The notes under the pieces were generated by a model. That model saw only the letters and a program-made list of their open reading frames with translations, searched no databases and was not told where the DNA came from. From contig JACQLQ010000004.1 in assembly GCA_016204045.1 (NCBI GenBank), forward strand, positions 164,927 through 228,926: a stretch of DNA of 64,000 nt. The letters are read 5' to 3'. This DNA comes from Parcubacteria group bacterium (GTDB taxonomy: Bacteria > Patescibacteriota > Minisyncoccia > Phycocordibacterales > UBA2135). How positions within the stretch are numbered: the first letter of the stretch is position 1; the number at the start of each line of letters is the position of its first letter. Below are positions 33,210 to 46,000 of the stretch, one piece after another. A program made the position numbers and the translations under genes.

Positions 33210-34613
33210 CTATTTACTAGTTGCCGGCGTTGACTGCCCGCCAGATACCCACTCATCTTTACCAAAATCATATGTTCCAGCTCCGGGTCCAAAGTTATAA
33301 GTACCAACAAAATTTCCACTTCCGGTATTCCCCACGCCTATAGCCTTAGCGGCATCTTGAGAAGTAGACGTAAAATTGTGGCTACCTATTAGCTGACTTG
33401 TGTAATCTGAAATTCCTCCAATACCAAGTTGCAGAGCACTTTGTTGTGTATGTTTTCCGTAAAGCCATGCATTCGTTCCAAAGTCTGGTAAACGTCCTGG
33501 AACCCCTGGCACAAGTTTTCCCGCTCCAAACGTAAGACCTCCGATTACGGTGTCTGCGGCAAATGATTGCCATGAAACTACTTCGCCAAGCGCATAGTTG
33601 CCTCCTGCGCCAGTTAGACCTGAGGCAAGGCCAACAGCCCCAATTTGAGCAGTAATTCCGTACGCCGCCGCTAAACCGCCCGTGCCTCCAACAATTGCAC
33701 CTTGTATTGCACGCACCGCATAAGTTTCTGGACTGGATAGACCACTATAAAACGCACTGGCACTGAAGCCATTTGCACTAATGTTGTTATATACATCATA
33801 GCCATATTGGCCTAGCATCCCTGCTCCCGCACCTATTATACATTGCGGGCATTTGCCAGTAGGATCACTTTTATTTATAGGGTTATTTTCCCCATACGAG
33901 TATGAATTTAAACTCTGTGGATTTTCAAGGTTTTGATTTGCCGGATTACCCCAGAATATTGGATCTTGACTTAAGAACTGTCCTTGCAGACTTCGATAGT
34001 AGCGTGAGTTCAAATAATTGAGCTCTGTCTCTGTATCAAGTCGTTCTCCGATAAAAGCACGCTCAAGTGGGTCGCCAGTTGAAACTCTTTCGCTACCAAA
34101 AGGATGATAATCTCTCGCGGAAAGAACGTCGCCGTCTTCGTCTGTAGTCACGGTCACGCTTCCAAGGTGATCGTTGTGCGCAAAGCTCGTTGTTGTCGCA
34201 CTTCCGTTTCCGTCGACGGTAGCTAGTAATACACCTCGGTTATCAAACACATGTTTGGTAGTCGTTGCAGAAGCCACCGTGTAATAGCTACCCACGTAGC
34301 CAGACACTGCATCACCGCCACCTTCGTTTTCAAAAAGCACGGGAGAGATACCTTCGGGAGTTATGACAAAACATTCAAGACCTTGGGAGGTCTCTTGGGT
34401 ACCTTCCGTCTCCTTTGTATCGATAGGGTCTCCAATACACCCTATCGCCAATTCTGTCGTTAATGGGGTTAATGCAAGAATTTGGCTGGTTTCGGTGAGG
34501 TAAAGGTAGGTGGGAAATTCCACCTGTGTCTCAAGGGCTTCTTCTTGAGCTCCCACAGAAAGTGGGATGCTTATCAGGAAAAAAGCGAGGAGTAGTAAGA
34601 GAGTTCGTAGCAT
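33210..34613 (-). CDS. orphan RHS repeat-associated core protein with signal peptide and a distinct C-terminal toxin domain
   Basis: RYYRSLQGQFLSQDPIFW...NPQSLNSYSYGENNPINKSDPTG core; about 150 aa close to the main RHS C-terminal region (SYYTVASATTTKH...TTDEDGDV...GSERVSTG); then an unrelated Gly-rich CT. Confidence 0.85.
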   Translation of the reverse strand: MLRTLLLLLAFFLISIPLSVGAQEEALETQVEFPTYLYLTETSQILALTPLTTELAIGCIGDPIDTKETEGTQETSQGLECFVITPEGISPVLFENEGGGDAVSGYVGSYYTVASATTTKHVFDNRGVLLATVDGNGSATTTSFAHNDHLGSVTVTTDEDGDVLSARDYHPFGSERVSTGDPLERAFIGERLDTETELNYLNSRYYRSLQGQFLSQDPIFWGNPANQNLENPQSLNSYSYGENNPINKSDPTGKCPQCIIGAGAGMLGQYGYDVYNNISANGFSASAFYSGLSSPETYAVRAIQGAIVGGTGGLAAAYGITAQIGAVGLASGLTGAGGNYALGEVVSWQSFAADTVIGGLTFGAGKLVPGVPGRLPDFGTNAWLYGKHTQQSALQLGIGGISDYTSQLIGSHNFTSTSQDAAKAIGVGNTGSGNFVGTYNFGPGAGTYDFGKDEWVSGGQSTPATSK

Positions 34614-34970
34614 AGTATGCTTTCAATTGTACCAAAATGAGACAAATGCGACACCACAGTGGCATTTTGATGTAGTATCGCGTCTTACCTGTGGATTATT
34701 CTTCTTTGACGACTACAAATATGTGTTAATATATAAATACACTTGGATATATGTGAGTAACCTCACATGAATCCGTAAGAGACTCTCTGAGTGGAAGGAA
34801 TGGCATCATTCCTCCGCCGAAAGCGGTTAAAGCCTTCTTTGGCTTACCCGCTTTTTCAATGTCATGTGATCACGGGTAGTCATAGGCAATGACTGCTTTT
34901 TTGATTGGTGGTCGATACACTCAAAAAAAGCTTTCATGGATGCTAATTAAAAATTAGCCACAAAGCAACC

Positions 34971-36305
34971 ATGAAAACAAAACACTTAGACTTAAAAATT
35001 GAGCATGTCTCAATTGATCTCCTCAAGCCCAGCGAGCACAATCCTCGCCGTTGGGCGGAAGACAAAACATCAACGCTTCGCGAAAGCATCCGTCGTTTCG
35101 GATTGGTAGACCCGATCATCTGCAACAGCGCCACAGGACGGGAAAATGTCGTTATCGGTGGAAACTTTCGATTAAGCGTAGCAAAGGAACTCGGTTTTAC
35201 GGAAGTACCCGTCGTATTCGTAAAAATAGAAGATCTCGAAAAGGAACGCGAGCTAACGATCCGACTGAACAAGAATACTGGCGAGTGGGATTTGGATCTT
35301 CTCGCCGCATTCGACGAAGCACTCCTCAAAGATATCGGATTCTCATCCGAAGAACTCGACGACGTATTCGCAGACCTCGACCCAGAGCCGGAAACGTTCG
35401 ATCTCAAGCACGAGCTCGAGAAAATAGGCATCGAAGAAGTGACCATGCAGAAGGGTGACATCTTCGATCTCGATGGGTCGCGCCTCATGTGCGGCGACTC
35501 AACAATCAAAGAAGATATCTTAACGCTCATGAACGGCGAGAGGTCTGACCTGTGCTTTACTGACCCCCCATATATTCTCGACTACACAAAGGGCAAAAAA
35601 CGGCACGGGAAAGCGACGGAAGGATTTGGTTACAAGCGCGATCGAAAATATCTTGAAACAGATGTGTTGCCGGAAAACTTTACCGACCTTTGGATGGCGA
35701 ACATTGCCGAAGTCCAAAAAGAAAACTTCTCCATCGTTACGTTCGAGAATCCGAAGAATCTCAAAACCATTTGGGAGGCATTGGAAAAGTACTGGAAATA
35801 CCGCAATACAATTGTTTGGCACATTCCGAACCGAGTACAGGGATTCGCCGCTAAGCACAGACTGTTCAACAAGCATGATGTCGCGTTGGTTGGGACATCG
35901 GGAGATGTCGCCTTGAACCAAGAACCCGAAGATGAGTTGTTCCAGAACGAATACGAAACTGCCATTTTCGCGACCGGGGGAAAACCTCACTGGGAAAGCT
36001 ATGGAAAGGGCAAAGAGTATTGCCCTACGGATTTCGTCGAACACATTGCTTCGGATGAGAAGAATTCAGGACAAGGAATCATCTTCGGAACGAAACCAGT
36101 CGAGATACTGATTCCCTACATCAAGGTGCTTACGAAGCGCGGAGATCTTGTGCTAGAACCGTTTGGCGGTTCCGGATCGACGCTCATCGCCTCTGTATCA
36201 CTCGGACGGCGCTGTTACGTCATGGAAAAAGTTCCCACGTACGCCGAGGTCATTATCGCTCGCTGGGAAAAGCATACCGGGAAGAAAGCGAGGAAAATAA
36301 CTTAG
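34971..36305 (+). CDS. ParB-like nuclease domain fused to a beta-class N6A/N4C DNA methyltransferase (orphan, phage-type)
   Basis: N-terminal LKPSEHNPRR (ParB/Srx); CFTDPPY (motif IV) precedes EPFGGSGST (motif I). Confidence 0.85.
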   Translation: MKTKHLDLKIEHVSIDLLKPSEHNPRRWAEDKTSTLRESIRRFGLVDPIICNSATGRENVVIGGNFRLSVAKELGFTEVPVVFVKIEDLEKERELTIRLNKNTGEWDLDLLAAFDEALLKDIGFSSEELDDVFADLDPEPETFDLKHELEKIGIEEVTMQKGDIFDLDGSRLMCGDSTIKEDILTLMNGERSDLCFTDPPYILDYTKGKKRHGKATEGFGYKRDRKYLETDVLPENFTDLWMANIAEVQKENFSIVTFENPKNLKTIWEALEKYWKYRNTIVWHIPNRVQGFAAKHRLFNKHDVALVGTSGDVALNQEPEDELFQNEYETAIFATGGKPHWESYGKGKEYCPTDFVEHIASDEKNSGQGIIFGTKPVEILIPYIKVLTKRGDLVLEPFGGSGSTLIASVSLGRRCYVMEKVPTYAEVIIARWEKHTGKKARKIT

Positions 36306-36314
36306 CAACGCATC

Positions 36315-36938
36315 ATGGCAAAACCGGAACGCACATCTCCAAACAAAATGCCGTTGCGGCAGCCGCCGAAGCGGGAATTAAAGATGCGCCAGATCGTCCG
36401 GCAATTGCAGATTACCCCGATTCCTCAGATAGCATGCGAACGCACGGGGGTATCCCGCGCAACGTATTACCGATGGAGAACCAATGACGTCGTTTTTTCC
36501 CGCGCTGCCGACCACGCGCTTGAGGCCGGACGGTTTTTCGTCAATGATGTTATCGAGTCGCAACTTATTCGAAAAGCAAAAAATGGCGATGGGGCATCCC
36601 AGAGATATTGGCTTTCCCATAACCATCCGAAATACTCGAAAAAGCAAATTCACGAACACTGTCATATCTGCGAAGTGAAAAGTACAGAAGAAAGACACAG
36701 GGACTCTAGGCGCGATCGACGAGGGTACGAAGTCGTTTATGGCGGTATCCTGAAAAATATCGGGGCAGACGAGGTTGACGAACGAATGGAAAAGGATGCC
36801 CACAAGATCGAGGACTGGATGTTTGAGAGATTCGAGATGCTGGGTGAGGATACATCTATTGAAAATGACGGCAACGATCCATCAAACAAATCCGGTCATC
36901 AAAATTCGAACGCGCCTACACCGCCGGATCATTCGTAA
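36315..36938 (+). CDS. HTH protein (phage terminase-small-subunit / HTH_23-like)
   Basis: ACERTGVSRATYYRWR helix-turn-helix near the N-terminus. Confidence 0.5.
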   Translation: MAKPERTSPNKMPLRQPPKRELKMRQIVRQLQITPIPQIACERTGVSRATYYRWRTNDVVFSRAADHALEAGRFFVNDVIESQLIRKAKNGDGASQRYWLSHNHPKYSKKQIHEHCHICEVKSTEERHRDSRRDRRGYEVVYGGILKNIGADEVDERMEKDAHKIEDWMFERFEMLGEDTSIENDGNDPSNKSGHQNSNAPTPPDHS

Positions 36939-37375
36939 ATCTCAAGGCCGAAGATTTCTTTTTTGAGTTTGCCGTAATCCTCCAGCGTATTAACGGGCTC
37001 CCACTGCTCGCCGCCTTCATAAGCCCAACTGCTCACGATATCCTCTTTAAGAACATCGTAAATTCTCCGCACTCTAAAATCTTTGTAGGGACTCTGAATA
37101 TCGTCAATCTTTACTGCAACATCCATCTCTGCAAAGCAGGATTTTCGCTTCGCATCATACGTGCTGTGCAGAACCTGAAGAACTGCCGTGCCAAGATTAT
37201 CTTTGCCGGACTGCTGTTCCGCAAGCTCTCTTGCTTTTGCGGCACATTCTTCGTTGAGGCTAAACAGTTCTCTGTCGCCTACTTCGCTCTTATTCCAGAG
37301 TAATCCGTACGAGACGATTGCCGCGGCGACAATCAATGCGGCAACGATTATTTGATTTTGTTTTATCCAATTCAT
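36929..37375 (-). CDS. membrane-anchored hypothetical protein
   Basis: N-terminal TM helix; no motif. Confidence 0.45.
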   Translation of the reverse strand: MNWIKQNQIIVAALIVAAAIVSYGLLWNKSEVGDRELFSLNEECAAKARELAEQQSGKDNLGTAVLQVLHSTYDAKRKSCFAEMDVAVKIDDIQSPYKDFRVRRIYDVLKEDIVSSWAYEGGEQWEPVNTLEDYGKLKKEIFGLEIYE

Positions 37376-37377
37376 TG

Positions 37378-37530
37378 CACTCTAGCGGGTTTTAGTGCGA
37401 CGGAGTGAGCCTAAACAAAAGGCTCCTGGCCATCGCAACGGAACCTTTCGGCCCCGCCCATACAGGTTTCCCCATATGACCCGCTAGAGTGACTCTGACC
37501 AGGAGTCCTTTGTTCTCTAGCGGGATTTTT
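37378..37530. promoter_or_regulatory. three copies of a 10-13-nt element (two direct, one inverted between them) that can form mutually exclusive hairpins; the second alternative is followed by a U-run on the plus strand
   Basis: cactctagcgggt at 37378-37390, acccgctagagtg at 37479-37491, ctctagcggg at 37515-37524 followed by attttt; copy 1 abuts the start codon of the minus-strand gene. Confidence 0.5.
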
Positions 37531-37657
37531 GACCATGCCACCGGATTTCTCCGAGGGTTTAGGTCACCGAATCGTTATTCAGTTGTAAAAACATTTTAAC
37601 GCAAATCGACCGTTGCGTCCATGGAACCTTAGCTTAGATATCGGTCTTTGCGAAGCC

Positions 37658-37671
37658 TGAGTTACCAACAG
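37658..37671. repeat. 14-bp direct repeat tgagttaccaacag (copy 1, 5 nt beyond the OLD gene stop)
   Basis: Exact match to 39627-39640. Confidence 0.8.
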
Positions 37672-37676
37672 GTCAT

Positions 37677-39578
37677 CTAAAATGCTTTTTGAGCAATCAC
37701 AGAGAAAAGTTTTGAAAAGTTATCTTTTGTCTCTTGCGACACAGCTATCTGCCCGGAAGACACTTTCTCATAAAACTGTCTCGAGAGGGGTGCTTTACTC
37801 GAGTCCGGTATTACACTGGAATTCAACTCTGACGATCGATAAGATTCATCTTTCTCAAGGACAAATTTGTTAAAGTCTGATTTGGCAATTAAATCTTCAA
37901 CTTGATGTCCATCTGTTTCGGAAACGAACGAAATATTTTCGTCTGTTAAAAGTAACTTCTCCTGCAAAATAGTTTTAATCTCCTTACCCTTATCGTCATT
38001 ATCCAATAAAGCATGAAAACCGAGTTTCCATCCGATGAGCAACGACACGATAGGTGGGGTATTATCAGCACCTTTGAGCGGAATAAAATGGACTTTTTCT
38101 AATTTTTTACTTGTAGATGCTGAAACAAATTTCAAGGCGGCTTGAAGATAGTAGTAATCTGAAATACCCTCCAGGATGAGATTGTGATCAGCTGCAATCG
38201 TCAATTGCTTGGTAACATCCAAGCCGATTGCAGTAATTATGGGCATAAGCGTAGTGCGGTCTGCGGCGGCATCAGAGGTCAAAGTAAAAACCTTAGTACC
38301 ACGGTTTTTTCTTTTGTCGAAATCTTTAATGACAAGACGAATACGATCAAGCCGGGCGGGATCAATCAGATAGGGAGAGTGGGTCGTTAAAACAATCTGA
38401 TTTTCCTTCGAAAGATCTGTAAGAACCTCGAGGATATCGTTCTGCGCCTGTGCGTGAACAAAGAGGCCTGGCTCATCAATTAATACGATGCTTTTATAAT
38501 CTTTGGCTTCTGCCTTAAGCAAGAGATAGAAGGCTAGAAACCACTGCAACCCCTTGCTCCTTTGTTCCATTCTGAAGGGTTCTTTTTTACCCTTTTCGTA
38601 GAAAGCAAAAACGAGCTTGTCGCCATTTAGCTCAACACGAAGGTCGATTTTATCTTGCTGCCAGCTACCTTTAAAATCCCCTTCTAGAACTGCCGATGCC
38701 TTCTTGGTATGAGCTAGTTTGTTTTGTGTTGTGATGCTGGTATCACTAAGTTTCTCGAGATCCAAACCTGAAATAGTGCAGTAACGCTTAACGCTAGTAT
38801 GTGTTTTTGCGGTGGTAAGATTAATTTCAAACGGCAGAGCATCTTCCTTATCAAAGGCTTCAAAGTAGACGAGGTTGGGTACCAGTTCCCAAATCTTTTC
38901 CTTATTTTCCTCACGTTCCTTTCCCAACAGATCGTACTCAGCTAAGGCTGCTTCTACTTTTGCTTTAAAATCTTTACCCTTCGTCTGCTGTTCAACAGAC
39001 AGTTGTGCTAAAGCTGCTTCAATTTGTGGTAAGAAAATTGTTCGCAGTTTCTCGGCATCTTGAATAGTAATCTTTTGTAAATCCTTAAGCGGATAGTTTG
39101 CAATAGGTTTCTCGTCGAACGCTGCCTTGAGTACGATAAAACCATCGCTAAGTTTTTCAATGCACTGACGTCTTTTTTTTGTTTTGTTCGTGAGCAGGAG
39201 ATCGATTACAGAACCATTGATACTATCGAACGTATAAGAATTATCGAAATGTTTTGTTATCGAAAATGGCGTAGCCAAAAGTGCTTCTTTACTGATTCCG
39301 GTCGGTAACCGGAGTCCATTTAGCAACTCGGCAAGGTCATCTTTTTCGAGTTTGAAAGTAAGAGTGATATCAGGTTCAATTCCTTCCGCCCCCATTGGAA
39401 GATCATCCTCGTCGAGGTTGGTTTCTTCCCCACGATTAAACGTCTCTAGCGCCTTGAGCAAAACGGTCTTCCCGGCCTCGTTTTTGCCAGCCAATACGGT
39501 GACATCTGAGGCAAGCTCGACATCACCGGAGTCGGCAATAGACCTAAAGTCCGTGATTTTGAACTTGAGTAGCTTCAT
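37677..39578 (-). CDS. OLD-family ATP-dependent endonuclease (ABC-type ATPase plus C-terminal Toprim); PARIS AriA-AriB-fusion / GajA-like defense candidate
   Basis: Walker A LAGKNEAGKT; Walker B VLIDEPGLFVH; IVLTTHSP; C-terminal LILEGISDYYYL Toprim-like EGxSD. Confidence 0.75.
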   Translation of the reverse strand: MKLLKFKITDFRSIADSGDVELASDVTVLAGKNEAGKTVLLKALETFNRGEETNLDEDDLPMGAEGIEPDITLTFKLEKDDLAELLNGLRLPTGISKEALLATPFSITKHFDNSYTFDSINGSVIDLLLTNKTKKRRQCIEKLSDGFIVLKAAFDEKPIANYPLKDLQKITIQDAEKLRTIFLPQIEAALAQLSVEQQTKGKDFKAKVEAALAEYDLLGKEREENKEKIWELVPNLVYFEAFDKEDALPFEINLTTAKTHTSVKRYCTISGLDLEKLSDTSITTQNKLAHTKKASAVLEGDFKGSWQQDKIDLRVELNGDKLVFAFYEKGKKEPFRMEQRSKGLQWFLAFYLLLKAEAKDYKSIVLIDEPGLFVHAQAQNDILEVLTDLSKENQIVLTTHSPYLIDPARLDRIRLVIKDFDKRKNRGTKVFTLTSDAAADRTTLMPIITAIGLDVTKQLTIAADHNLILEGISDYYYLQAALKFVSASTSKKLEKVHFIPLKGADNTPPIVSLLIGWKLGFHALLDNDDKGKEIKTILQEKLLLTDENISFVSETDGHQVEDLIAKSDFNKFVLEKDESYRSSELNSSVIPDSSKAPLSRQFYEKVSSGQIAVSQETKDNFSKLFSVIAQKAF

Positions 39579-39626
39579 GGAAATATCCAGTATGTTAGCA
39601 CTTTTTTGAGAAAAATGAAGGGCCTA

Positions 39627-39640
39627 TGAGTTACCAACAG
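39627..39640. repeat. 14-bp direct repeat tgagttaccaacag (copy 2, in the divergent OLD/recombinase intergenic region)
   Basis: Exact match to 37658-37671. Confidence 0.8.
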
Positions 39641-39684
39641 CTAGATCTGGACTTCCCCAGCCAGGGCGTCATTGATGTTGATAT

Positions 39685-41427
39685 ATGAGAAAAGCGGCAT
39701 TATACGCCCGTGTGAGCACGGCGCTTCAAGAAAAAGAAAAAACAATTGAGAGCCAAATCGCTGAACTAAAAAAACAGATACAAGTGGCTGGAAATGTTCT
39801 CGTTAAAGAATATGTTGATAATGGACACAGTGGAGCATATCTTGATCGACCCGCTCTTGATGAGCTACGTGCGGCACTCAAGACAGATAGCTTTGATGCT
39901 GTCTACTTTCATTCAACCGATCGTATAGCGCGAGATGTAATGCACCAAAATATTATCATTAGTGAACTTATCAACAACAAAAAACAAATCGTTATCAACG
40001 GAATAGATTATGAGAAAAATCCTGAAAATGAGTTCTCTCTTACGGTGCTTGGAGCTGTCTCTCAATTCGAGCGAGCAAAAATCATGGAACGAACGCGACG
40101 AGGGTGGTTACATCGTCTACGCCAAGGCCAGCTTGTCTCTCAAGGCCGGGGAACGTACGGGTATGATTACATGCGCAAGACTCCAACCAGTCCTCCAGCG
40201 CTTGTCATAAACGAAGAACAAGCTAAAACAGTGCGTTATATATTTGAACAGTATGCAAACAATTTGAAGGGTGTTTGTGCAATCTCACGTTCGCTCGAGC
40301 AAAAAAATATTCGTACTTGTAGGGGAAAGAATTTGTGGAATAGAGAAATATTAATTCGGATGCTTCAAAACAAGACATATATTGGTACGCGTTATTTCAA
40401 CACACGTACTCGAGAAAAAACCGCAGACGGAACACGCAAAAAGAATTGGAAGATCGTTTATCGTGACCAATCGGAATGGATCGCTGTAAAAGTACCTACG
40501 ATTGTATCGCAAGATCTTTTCGATAAAGCACAGGAGAGGATTAAAAAATCTCGCGAACGATACTGCCAACCTGATGTTATATTTCTCTTGCGTGGGTTAG
40601 TAGTATGTGGGGAATGCGGCCGTAGGTACTGTTCATGTCGCTGGTATGAGAAAAGAAAGCTTCAAACAGGAGAACTGCGAGTGGTCCACTGGGCCGCATA
40701 CCGATGCAATTCAGGGTCTAGTCTTGCACAGCATGATATCTCCAAACTTAAACGTTGTCGCAACCCTCGAATTTCAACTCACATCCTTGATGACAAGATC
40801 ATGGTGATGATCCAAAATATTATGCTGGATCCTAAAAAACTTTCTCTCTGTATGGAACGAGGCGGGCATGAACCAGATGTAAATGCCGCACGAGAAATCG
40901 CACGTATTGCACGGCGAGCAAAGCTACTCGACAATCAAAGACGACAAATAATTGATAACTATGCACACGGACGCATAGGAACTGAAAAGTATATAAAGAG
41001 AAACCAAGCGCTTGATACTGAGCTTAATCGGCTCACAGACAAAAAAAGAGAGCTTACTAACGCGGTATATACCCAAAGCGGCTTCGCTGAAAAAAGTATC
41101 CAACAATTCTGCGCAAATGCACGAATGGAATTTGTAACCTGTAATGATTTCGACACGAAGCGAAAATTTCTACGCGACCATATTGAGAAGATAATTTTTA
41201 ACCGTGATAGAGTGACCATCATTGGTTCTGTCCCTGCTAAAAATGCGCCAGAAAATACCCCATTGTCCTTTCGGATAGAGGATGAGATTGATAGAAAAGC
41301 AATACGATCAAAAACAGGACGTAAAAATGCTTTAAATTGGCCGAAGAAACGCGCAACATGGAGAGCGGTATTCTCTGAGACTTCAAGTAAGGTAATGGAA
41401 ACCAGACGAAAGCGTAGAGCCGGCTAA
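39685..41427 (+). CDS. large serine recombinase (resolvase catalytic domain plus recombinase domain plus zinc ribbon)
   Basis: AALYARVSTALQ catalytic Ser motif; DRIARD; CGECGRRYCSCR zinc ribbon; C-terminal coiled coil. Confidence 0.93.
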   Translation: MRKAALYARVSTALQEKEKTIESQIAELKKQIQVAGNVLVKEYVDNGHSGAYLDRPALDELRAALKTDSFDAVYFHSTDRIARDVMHQNIIISELINNKKQIVINGIDYEKNPENEFSLTVLGAVSQFERAKIMERTRRGWLHRLRQGQLVSQGRGTYGYDYMRKTPTSPPALVINEEQAKTVRYIFEQYANNLKGVCAISRSLEQKNIRTCRGKNLWNREILIRMLQNKTYIGTRYFNTRTREKTADGTRKKNWKIVYRDQSEWIAVKVPTIVSQDLFDKAQERIKKSRERYCQPDVIFLLRGLVVCGECGRRYCSCRWYEKRKLQTGELRVVHWAAYRCNSGSSLAQHDISKLKRCRNPRISTHILDDKIMVMIQNIMLDPKKLSLCMERGGHEPDVNAAREIARIARRAKLLDNQRRQIIDNYAHGRIGTEKYIKRNQALDTELNRLTDKKRELTNAVYTQSGFAEKSIQQFCANARMEFVTCNDFDTKRKFLRDHIEKIIFNRDRVTIIGSVPAKNAPENTPLSFRIEDEIDRKAIRSKTGRKNALNWPKKRATWRAVFSETSSKVMETRRKRRAG

Positions 41428-41597
41428 GTCTATAATAAGATACTAAAAATACTTTTTATCGGAGGGAACTTGAAATGGTTTTTTTATTATTTCGTGAGTT
41501 CGGCCTTCCTCGTTTCCCCCACTTAGGGCATGCAGGAGATGAAATTTGAAACACGTGTGCTTTTTTGCGTCGGCCGAGCTAAATGATTTGTCGTGCG

Positions 41598-42719
41598 TCA
41601 TTGTTCAATCTCATATTCAAGATCCAGTATCCAGGGTTTATAAGGAGGATTATCATTATTGTTCACATTTTTATTGCGCTGCAAGACACTTTTATGAACA
41701 ACGGGTTTATCTTTTCTATTTGAATCCCAAGAACGTTGTTTCTTGTGATAAGATGAGTTAACCAAACCATTACGTGAATTGTGCATATAACCATTCACGT
41801 CGCCGTTAATAGAAAGAGAATTTTCAGGATTTATATGAAGACCGTGATTAACAGCCTTCTTCTTCATCCAGACAAGCGGAATGTCTGATAATTCCTGTTC
41901 ATCATAACCACCACCAACATCGGTATGCATTCCACAGAACCATACTTGCTTAATGGTTTGGTGTGGCAAAACATCTGGGTCCCACAAAATAGGATGAAAA
42001 GTTTTTCGTTCATCATCAATTGCTAATGCCTGATAGGCATTTTCAACAGATTCACTCAATTTAAAATCATGGAATTTATACTGAAGTCCGTAGATACTAC
42101 CAAGAGATTTTTTCTGAAATCTGGCTTTCGCCTTAATAATCATCTCAATAAATACATTAACTAGTGTAGTTTTTAGGTCAGTCAATTCATCTGGTAGACC
42201 CAGCGCATCAACGGTATCATAGCAACCGAGAAATTTAATTCTTGTCCGTATTGTGTGTTGTGTGGATAGAAACTTTTTTACTTCGATTTTACGCTTAGAT
42301 TCGTCTTCATATTCATAGATTTCATAAGCTTTCTCTACCAGATTAGGGCGAGATTCGGGTATTATGCCAAAGTAGTGAATAAAACTTGATAGGCTGCGAA
42401 CTGTCGCGGCACCACGACTAAAACCAAACAAATAGATCTGGTCACCTTCTTTAAAGTTTTTGGAAATAAATGTGTAGCAATCCAAAATGTTTTTTGACAT
42501 ACCCGCACCGACAACGTTGCCAGCAACCCTTTGCCCCCAGTTAGTACCTAATCCTGGATCATAGAATGAAACCTGTCGTGAGGTAGAATTTTCAATTATA
42601 TTGAATAGCTTATAAATATTTGTACTCGGTCCCTTGCCACCTTTCTGCCCCGTACCGTCAGAAAATATCACAATATTTTTGGGCATATTATTTTTACTTA
42701 TGGAATTGGGAACAGTCAC
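41598..42719 (-). CDS. DUF2235 alpha/beta hydrolase (T6SS Tle1 phospholipase-like)
   Basis: IVIFSDGTGQ and GFSRGAATVR motifs characteristic of DUF2235 / Tle1. Confidence 0.75.
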   Translation of the reverse strand: MTVPNSISKNNMPKNIVIFSDGTGQKGGKGPSTNIYKLFNIIENSTSRQVSFYDPGLGTNWGQRVAGNVVGAGMSKNILDCYTFISKNFKEGDQIYLFGFSRGAATVRSLSSFIHYFGIIPESRPNLVEKAYEIYEYEDESKRKIEVKKFLSTQHTIRTRIKFLGCYDTVDALGLPDELTDLKTTLVNVFIEMIIKAKARFQKKSLGSIYGLQYKFHDFKLSESVENAYQALAIDDERKTFHPILWDPDVLPHQTIKQVWFCGMHTDVGGGYDEQELSDIPLVWMKKKAVNHGLHINPENSLSINGDVNGYMHNSRNGLVNSSYHKKQRSWDSNRKDKPVVHKSVLQRNKNVNNNDNPPYKPWILDLEYEIEQ

Positions 42720-42727
42720 GATTATCT

Positions 42728-42976
42728 CTAACTAATGAGTGAATATATTGCTGCTGCTATGAACGCAACACCAACCACTATCCATCCTATAGTTCTTACA
42801 TATCTTTCGGTGTTAATTTCTTGTTTAGAGATACTCTCGTATTCTTTATCGATATTTGTACCGGGCATTTGCTCCCCCCTCAAAAAGTGTTTTTTTGACA
42901 CCATTCGAACAACACCCTGGTATATTAGGTAGCTTCCAATGAGGATTAGGAAGATTTCGAAGATTATACTTGTCAT
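42728..42976 (-). CDS. small two-TM membrane protein, candidate immunity protein for the main RHS toxin
   Basis: Immediately downstream of the RHS C-terminal toxin domain; two hydrophobic helices. Confidence 0.4.
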   Translation of the reverse strand: MTSIIFEIFLILIGSYLIYQGVVRMVSKKHFLRGEQMPGTNIDKEYESISKQEINTERYVRTIGWIVVGVAFIAAAIYSLIS

Positions 42977-43015
42977 ATTATCTTTGGTTTGTATTTGTAC
43001 AAATATTTTGAATGA

Positions 43016-46000
43016 TTATTCTTCTTCATTATCTTCGTTATTATCTGACGATGGTGCTGTAATAATATTACCATGCCAATCTACAACAGCGCCACTTGGT
43101 GTTGTGTAGGTTTGTTTTGTTGGATCTGTCATTGGTGCTTGCTGTGGTATCTGTACCTGCCCCTCAAAGACACTGATCAATATTTGTCCAACATCAAAAA
43201 GTGTTCTTTGGTATTTATTAACTTGAGTTTTCGCAAATTCAACTGCCGCATCAAGCCCTAATACACCCTTAGAATTATCATCAAAATCTGACTTGTAACC
43301 CTCAACAACATCTTTTACTGTTAACAGATTTGAGGTACCGCTTATTATTTTCCGAGCTGCTTCTCTAGTAGCAGGTGACAGTAAGAATTGAAGGACCCTC
43401 TGGGCAATCTGAGCAACAACTTCACCGCTGGGGTCACTCATAGTTATCGGATTATTCCCAGAATAACTATATGAATTTAAGAGTTGCGGATTTGAAAGTA
43501 CTGCCTCTCTGTTAATTTCTCCCGGTTTTTTATTAACCGTCAGAATATATTCCAACATCGGTTTCATCATCGCAACATCTCGCGCTACTGGATCCTGGCT
43601 CATAAACTGACCTCTTGAGTTTTGATAATATCGTGCGTTCAAATAATTCAACGAAGTTTCAGTGTCAAAGCGCTCTCCTATGTAATGCCGGTCGGTTGCA
43701 TTGGAGCCAGTAGAAACTCTTTCAGATCCGTAAGGATAGTAATCTAATGCTTGTGTGACATCACCATCTTCATCGGTTGTAATCGTCGTTGAGTTTAAGT
43801 GATCAGCGTGTGAGAAATTGGTTGAGGTTGCAGTGCCATTTCCTTCGACAGTGGCGAGCAATGTCCCGCTGGTATCAAAGATATGTTTGGTGGTTGTTGC
43901 AGAAGCCACCGTGTAATAGCTACCCACGTACGTCGTCGTCGCTGTCCCATTTCCTTTGGTGACCCTGTCATTCTGGAAATCATACCCATAGAACGTCGTT
44001 ATACCTCCCACCGTCGACGACGCCATCCTGTCTCTGTAATTCCAACCATAAATATCTGAACCGAAGAAGATCACATTCCCGTTGTTGTCGTAGGTTACAC
44101 TTACTCCGCCAATCGAAGTCGCCGCATGCGGATTCGCATAGTTCGTCTCGGCGTAGGTGTAGTCCCCCAACCTGGAAGTTGTCGCTATGTTCCCAATACG
44201 GTCGTAGGTGAATGTTTGTCGGTAACCGCCATCAACAGGGACGGTCGTTGAGGCCGTGAGGAGCCGGTAGAGATCGTCGTAGGTGTAGTTCACCACCTTT
44301 CCCCCACCGAAGCCGGAGAGGTCTTTGACTTGGGTAATGTTGCCGGCAGTGTCGTAGGTATACGTCAGCGCTTGCAGTGCGTTGTGCGCCGCCGTCGTCG
44401 TTCCTACGTTGTTTATTGCCACGTTAATCCTACAGAGACACGGTGTGCCGGTTGCGGAGTAGGACGGTGTCAGCTCGACCTTGAGCCACAGGAACTTGCC
44501 GTAGAGATTGGAACCTGCCGTAACACCCGGGATTGACGTGGTTGACGTCGCAATGGCGGTGGTGAAGTCGCTCGCCGCCGGGGTTGTGGTGGACGAGGTG
44601 ATGAGGGTCTTTACCTTTACGTCGGCGCCGTTTCTGGCGCAGACACAATACTCAATGAAGCTGTCTTCAACGTTCGTGATGGGAGAAAGGTCCCAGGGGT
44701 CAGAGATCCAGTAGCCGGCTTGGTATTGCGGAGTAGAGGTCGAGCCGAAGTTGTAGAGTTTGAGATACTTTGCCGGTGTTGTAGTGGCAAGCGAAGGGCC
44801 GCCGACAGTTGTGGAGGCATGTGTGCCATCCGCGTCATACGTCCGAAGTGGCCACGCCCTCTGGTCTCCCTTATACGTCGGCATAGACATGGTGAGGTCG
44901 CCCGTGTAGAAGCGGTAGCGGTCGCCGTAGTAGACAGCGGTGGACGAAGTCGACATGAATGCCTGAAAACTATAGTCCTTGAAGTCCTGGAGGCCTAAGA
45001 GGGAGATGGAGAACGGCCCCGTTGAGGTCGCGGCCATGGTCGTTGTCGTCGCGGTCCAAGGGTCATCATTATCAAGGAGAAGCCCGTAGCGGAAACCGAC
45101 GGTGACGGTCGAGGTTGTGGCCGTCCCCATGAGGTTAATGAGGTTCCCCACAAGGTCAGCGCCGTCTTGTTGGACGTTTGTCGAACCCATGGTAAGAACA
45201 GGGTTTTTCCCGCTAAAGGGTGTCGTGGTGCCAACAAGAGTCGTGATGGTGGAGAGCCGGTACAGCGCGTGCTCGTCGTAGTCATACAGCGACGTGTCGC
45301 CGTTACCAAAGTGACGCGCGGTGACGCTCTCTCCGGGGTTGTAGTTTGCGTTGTGGAGAACGAAACGCGAAAGGGTTGAGGTCGAGGTCGGGAGAAGGTC
45401 CACTGACTCAAGGAGCCCCGCGGCGTTAAAGCGATACGAGGCGGTTGCGGCGTCGGGGTAGACGATACTCGTCATATTCCCCTGCCGATCGTAGGCAAAG
45501 GAGGTCAGATAGCGCGTGCTATTGATTGTCTTCTCCTCGCTTGCTATGTTCCCCAGCGCATCATAGACAAAGTTTGCCGCGGCCGCGGTCGTAGTGGCAG
45601 AGCAGAGGCGCCCGATGCCCTCGGGACAGGTGTCGTACGCGAAAGCGACTTCGGTCCCCGCCTCGAGTGTGTAGTTCTCGGTCAATACTCGGTTAATGTC
45701 GTCGTAGGTGAAGTTCACCGTCTGGTTTTTGCCGTCTATCTTTGTCGTGACGTTCCCTGCCGCATCGTAGAGAAGTGTTGTTGATGCAAAGCCGGTGTCC
45801 GCCGCATCATGCAAGTCCTCTGACTTGGTGAGGCGGGAGAGGTTGTCGTAGGTGAAGTTGCGCAAGTTTCCAAGCGAATCGGTAATCTTGGTGAGGTCGT
45901 TCCGCGCATTGTATTCATAGGTGGTGGTGTACTGGCTCCCGTCGTCATGCTCTATCACGGTTTTGAGGTTCCCGAATGCGTCATTCGTGAATTGCTTCGT

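Follow-up and report, generated by a model that had tools for sequence, protein, structure and literature searches.

SCC elements, which depend on Ccr large serine recombinases, and integrons carry a recombinase gene beside a conserved short site, and their cassettes, which are transcribed away from the recombinase, lie between direct repeats of that site. Class 1 OLD nucleases, represented by phage P2 Old, Thermus scotoductus (Ts) OLD (6P74) and Vibrio cholerae Vc OLD, combine an ABC ATPase and a Toprim domain in the product of a single gene; according to a review, Class 1 genes do not lie close to other defence genes, and P2 Old is borne by a mobile element, the phage. Phage satellites and prophages harbour defence hotspots (P2/P4, PICI, V. 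cholerae PLE). These lie in small integrative elements that lack capsid genes and have genes related to packaging, a terminal recombinase, frequently a tRNA flank, and one position at which unrelated defence systems replace each other (PMC9122126, PMC9638900); the PLE uses a large serine recombinase. In Rhs orphan arrays arising by C-terminal displacement, a main Rhs gene with its tip and immunity gene is followed by an orphan core–tip–immunity module that shares core sequence. The LOOT RNA motif is listed in Rfam (RF03000) under sRNA genes; the literature search brought up no paper dealing with its function or gene neighbours.

The locus described here lies in a 64-kb stretch of DNA (the window) from a Parcubacteria (CPR) MAG; an identical protein, MBI4118583.1, is from a Parcubacteria MAG, and the host YchF has its nearest match among Paceibacterota, with 62% identity at best. 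An island had been predicted within an Rhs toxin array, and its four principal genes, encoding a ParB_N-fused methyltransferase (MTase), a TerS-like HTH protein, an OLD-family nuclease and a large serine recombinase (LSR), were indeed found in that order, at the predicted positions and on the predicted strands, between a main and an orphan Rhs gene (Table 1). The reading favoured here, with moderate confidence, is that the region is a degenerate, satellite-like copy belonging to a small-integrative-element family that occurs across the CPR (Patescibacteria), that it carries a slot for defence cargo, and that its present-day mobility is putative.

Table 1. Features of the locus, in window coordinates.
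Feature	Position	Strand	Basis or remark
Orphan 'mini-Rhs': signal-peptide-like N-terminus, Rhs core, toxin tip	33210–34613	-	Context
35-bp stretch	34264–34298		Identical to 43896–43930
ParB_N-fused beta-class N6/N4 DNA MTase, first gene of packaging-type module	34971–36305	+	Pfam ParB_N and N6_N4_Mtase
TerS-like HTH protein, 207 aa	36315–36938	+	PHROG TerS, 1.4e-6; syntenic homologues
148-aa protein, hydrophobic N-terminal stretch resembling a membrane anchor	36929–37375	-	Sequence
LOOT sRNA gene (RF03000)	37440–37565	-	78.5 bits; gathering score 46.4
Terminator-like hairpin after OLD	37598–37619	-	Relatives: hairpin of different sequence, same place
Direct repeat, copy 1 (TGAGTTACCAACAG)	37658–37671	+	Between OLD stop codon and LOOT 5' flank
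Solo OLD-family nuclease, 633 aa	37677–39578	-	Pfam, PADLOC, motifs, invariant residues, AF2, Foldseek, PDB profile search
Divergent OLD/LSR intergenic region	39579–39684		Blocks TCTGGACT and GGCGTCATT conserved with relatives up to LSR ATG
Direct repeat, copy 2 (TGAGTTACCAACAG)	39627–39640	+	45 bp upstream of LSR start codon
Large serine recombinase, 580 aa	39685–41427	+	Pfam Resolvase, Recombinase and Zn_ribbon
Tle1-like (DUF2235) phospholipase gene, between LSR and main Rhs cassette	41598–42686	-	Context
Putative immunity gene, 82 aa	42728–42976		Context
Main Rhs toxin, 2165 aa	43016–49513	-	Context

A solo OLD-family nuclease

The OLD gene product had been described as an ABC-type ATPase with a Toprim-like nuclease domain, and this description held: the sequence contains Walker A LAGKNEAGKT, Walker B IVLIDEPG and H-loop TTHSP, the catalytic Toprim motifs LILEGISDYYYL and LLDNDD are intact, and the top PADLOC model is 'Old' (4.9e-28). 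The protein matches Pfam AAA_15 (2.2e-24) and AAA_21 (1.7e-21), and OLD-like_TOPRIM scores 21.1 bits, slightly under its 23.2-bit cutoff. The layout runs from an ABC ATPase with a helical insertion through the Toprim domain to a C-terminal helical region of ~70 aa. Across 104 homologues the residues K37, D368/E369, H400, E470, D474, D526, E561, D562 and K595 never vary, while D528 is retained in 90% or more. The AF2 model (pLDDT 85.5) has Ts OLD as its top Foldseek match, and the same structure is matched in a profile search against the PDB at 3e-18, across the ATPase–Toprim junction, with E470/D474/D526/D528 aligned to Ts E377/D381/D431/D433. Ts OLD is thus the best solved match by both routes, at ~12% identity in the Foldseek alignment and with a chain of 528 aa as against 633 aa.

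The original prediction favoured a Class 1 OLD or a fused PARIS system. The single-gene OLD part of that statement stands, with membership of Class 1 assigned by context only, because the protein departs from the Class 1 structure in its extra C-terminal helical region, which carries the invariant K595 and is a trait described for OLDs outside Class 1. As predicted, there is no UvrD-like GajB partner, and no helicase gene adjoins OLD. The homologues, unlike Class 1 genes, often lie inside R-M operons, being the last gene in MTase–REase–OLD operons and in an operon containing HsdM, and this distribution suggests a subfamily associated with defence.

That the gene might be a fused PARIS (AriA–AriB), or a Gabija GajA left without its GajB partner, is highly improbable. 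PADLOC models for AriA, GajA and PtuA do match the ATPase region, and GajA is among the top Foldseek matches; however, the AriA models (373 and 304) are close in length to the generic AAA_15 and AAA_21 models (374 and 304) and cover the same residues, with AriA sequence matches confined to the ATPase signature region. GajA was missed by the profile-sequence search that recovered Ts OLD, and no UvrD-like gene lies beside OLD or its closest homologues. Fused PARIS is not supported, there being no DUF4435 in the Pfam table of the protein, the AriA models being close in length to generic ones, and the closest solved relative being the Class 1 Thermus OLD.

A role outside defence, whether in the chromosome or cell cycle, as for the archaeal OLD-family ATPase Cran1, or in element maintenance, is very unlikely. 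Cran1 is a precedent for such a role (PMC12796447) and CPR genomes are streamlined, but the nuclease residues are invariant, and the distribution of the homologues is patchy, with variable neighbourhoods and repeated occurrence within R-M operons and mobile elements.

The protein would work as an ABC ATPase dimer that governs, through its nucleotide state, a Toprim nuclease of the two-metal type, with E470, D526 and D528 as predicted ligands of metal A, D474 and probably also E561/D562 as those of metal B, and K595 as a candidate basic residue. Upon phage infection it might attack the incoming nucleic acid by nicking or degradation or, in the manner of P2 Old, cleave tRNA, and would thereby protect both the host and the element.

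The element family and its cargo slot

The first gene of the island was correctly called as a ParB-N-fused beta-class DNA MTase, its DPPY motif lying upstream of FGGSGS, as is the order in the beta class. The terminase-small-like call on the next gene was also borne out: HTH and TerS matches are weak, and homologues in relatives lie directly upstream of TerL. No TerL follows the gene here, nor was a TerL remnant found anywhere in the window. A search of 1.84 billion representatives with the adjacent 148-aa protein gave only 12 proteins at E<=0.001, the query being one of them, and the gene for this protein is absent beside OLD homologues; judged from these searches, it is not a conserved OLD partner.

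Dozens of contigs repeat the layout ParB-MTase–TerS–(TerL)–LOOT–[slot]–LSR–tRNA, and in these ParB-MTase homologues of 61–67% identity are followed by TerS, TerL and an LSR of ~440 aa. Among 69 loci with this LSR, ParB-MTase/TerS/TerL lie upstream on the same strand in 55, LOOT is present in 21 and a downstream tRNA in 14, and TerS/TerL and the LSR are separated by <=200 bp in 23 and by >1 kb in 24, frequencies that are biased since the contigs come from a 'viral' collection and were picked by homology. All named members of the ~440-aa LSR family are of CPR lineage or unclassified 'bacterium'. Cargo found in the slot of relatives comprises R-M genes of types I and III, DNA methyltransferases, a KAP NTPase, a reverse transcriptase and OLD, together with a weak HepT-like match; at loci L303, L340, L345 and L347 OLD-family genes lie near such modules but outside the slot. 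The slot between LOOT and the recombinase gene probably works as a defence-gene hotspot, and the ParB-MTase and TerS-like genes are probably the leftover packaging module of a satellite-like element; TerL, the ~440-aa recombinase of the family and the flanking tRNA are missing here. The family shares with the described satellite and prophage hotspots the small size, the lack of capsid genes, the packaging-related genes, the terminal recombinase, often the tRNA flank, and the single position at which unrelated defence systems replace each other. It differs from them in its CPR host, its ParB-MTase/TerS/TerL module and the structured sRNA that marks the slot; the window copy is without TerL and the cognate LSR.

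LOOT had been overlooked in the original prediction, as had the 14-bp repeats that mark off OLD as a separate cassette. The RNA gene lies immediately after OLD on the same strand, matches the Rfam model over its full length, and has sequence conservation continuing 5' to about 37671 in an extended alignment; the 301-nt intergenic RNA that holds it has a fold z-score of -4.9. The model confirmed matches in 11 of 11 re-checked loci, and the motif is consistently tied here to the LSR/terminase element and its cargo slot.

OLD is bounded by perfect direct repeats, and the 13-mer GAGTTACCAACAG has exactly two matches in the window, one on each side of the gene. The junction motif GTTAYCAACWG is conserved in relatives upstream of the LSR and beside LOOT, and when the OLD cassette was deleted in silico the flanks became collinear with the uninterrupted LOOT–LSR junctions of loci L302 and L348. 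These observations are consistent with site-specific capture of a single cassette, a stand-alone OLD that has a short promoter region and a terminator to itself and is bounded by the two repeats of the junction motif. The OLD/LSR divergent pair is also present at locus L083, and the order LOOT…OLD–LSR is repeated at a tRNA-bounded locus with a 74%-identical OLD; the second repeat is degenerate or undetected at L296 and L326. A single ancestral OLD insertion probably underlies both the window and L083, so that the cases of repeat-flanked cargo come down to essentially one event. The arrangement appears similar to that of SCC elements and integrons in having a recombinase gene by a conserved short motif and a repeat-flanked cassette transcribed away from it, and the best NCBIfam matches of the LSR are CcrB and CcrC; here, however, the motif is 11–14 bp, the repeat-flanked cargo is documented for one lineage, and multi-cassette arrays were not seen.

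The recombinase and the Rhs array

The predicted LSR is intact and carries Resolvase, Recombinase and Zn_ribbon domains. It is 21–23% identical to the ~440-aa LSRs and, on this comparison, is of a different family from the LSR of the elements, so that recombination at the junction motif may never have taken place in the local element. The present recombinase belongs to a family otherwise found inside Rhs toxin arrays, and may have replaced a cognate predecessor; homologues of 49–55% identity lie between Rhs/YD-shell fragments in three of four independent contexts, which fits the position of the island between the main and orphan Rhs genes.

The mismatch bears on the claim that positions 34971–41427 are a prophage or integrative-element remnant. 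Horizontally acquired DNA of phage or integrative ancestry is supported; a single unit integrated by the 580-aa LSR into the Rhs array, delivering OLD, is unlikely. Such a unit would account for the contiguous genes, the GC below that of the flanks, the intact LSR and the divergent pair at L083, but the same modules are accompanied elsewhere by the ~440-aa LSR, and homologues of the 580-aa LSR sit in Rhs arrays without ParB-MTase or OLD. Moreover, the two outer intergenic regions have no att-like repeats in common, the element showed neither structural nor replication genes and no match in the phage collection, and OLD has repeat boundaries of its own. The analysis found neither outer att sites for the local element nor an empty chromosomal site or a circular form.

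It is possible, if rather doubtful, that the LSR belongs to the Rhs array itself, with LSR-bearing tip cassettes inserting or exchanging at Rhs genes. A 9632-bp unit (34299–43930) holding tip1, the 82-aa gene, Tle1, the LSR, OLD, LOOT and the ParB-MTase module would then be one acquired block that displaced the old tip into the orphan mini-Rhs. Besides the Rhs-associated homologues, one of which is flanked by Rhs repeats 71–83% identical and ~9.5 kb apart, this would explain the direct Rhs-core repeats of the window (33992–34298 and 43621–43930, ~310 bp, about 75% identity), which open with the identical 35-bp stretch, and the in-frame signal-peptide-like N-terminus acquired by the displaced tip. 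However, the ~310-bp homology is equally predicted by RecA-type C-terminal displacement, one LSR homologue has no Rhs nearby, and no common att site is seen in the Rhs core because the orphan breakpoints differ between loci. The synteny of LOOT, ParB-MTase and OLD with CPR elements would also be left unexplained. The locus resembles described Rhs orphan arrays in having a main Rhs with tip and immunity gene and, after it, an orphan core–tip–immunity module with core sequence in common. It differs in that a mobile island and an LSR intervene between the two modules, the orphan begins with a signal-peptide-like sequence of its own, and the host belongs to the CPR.

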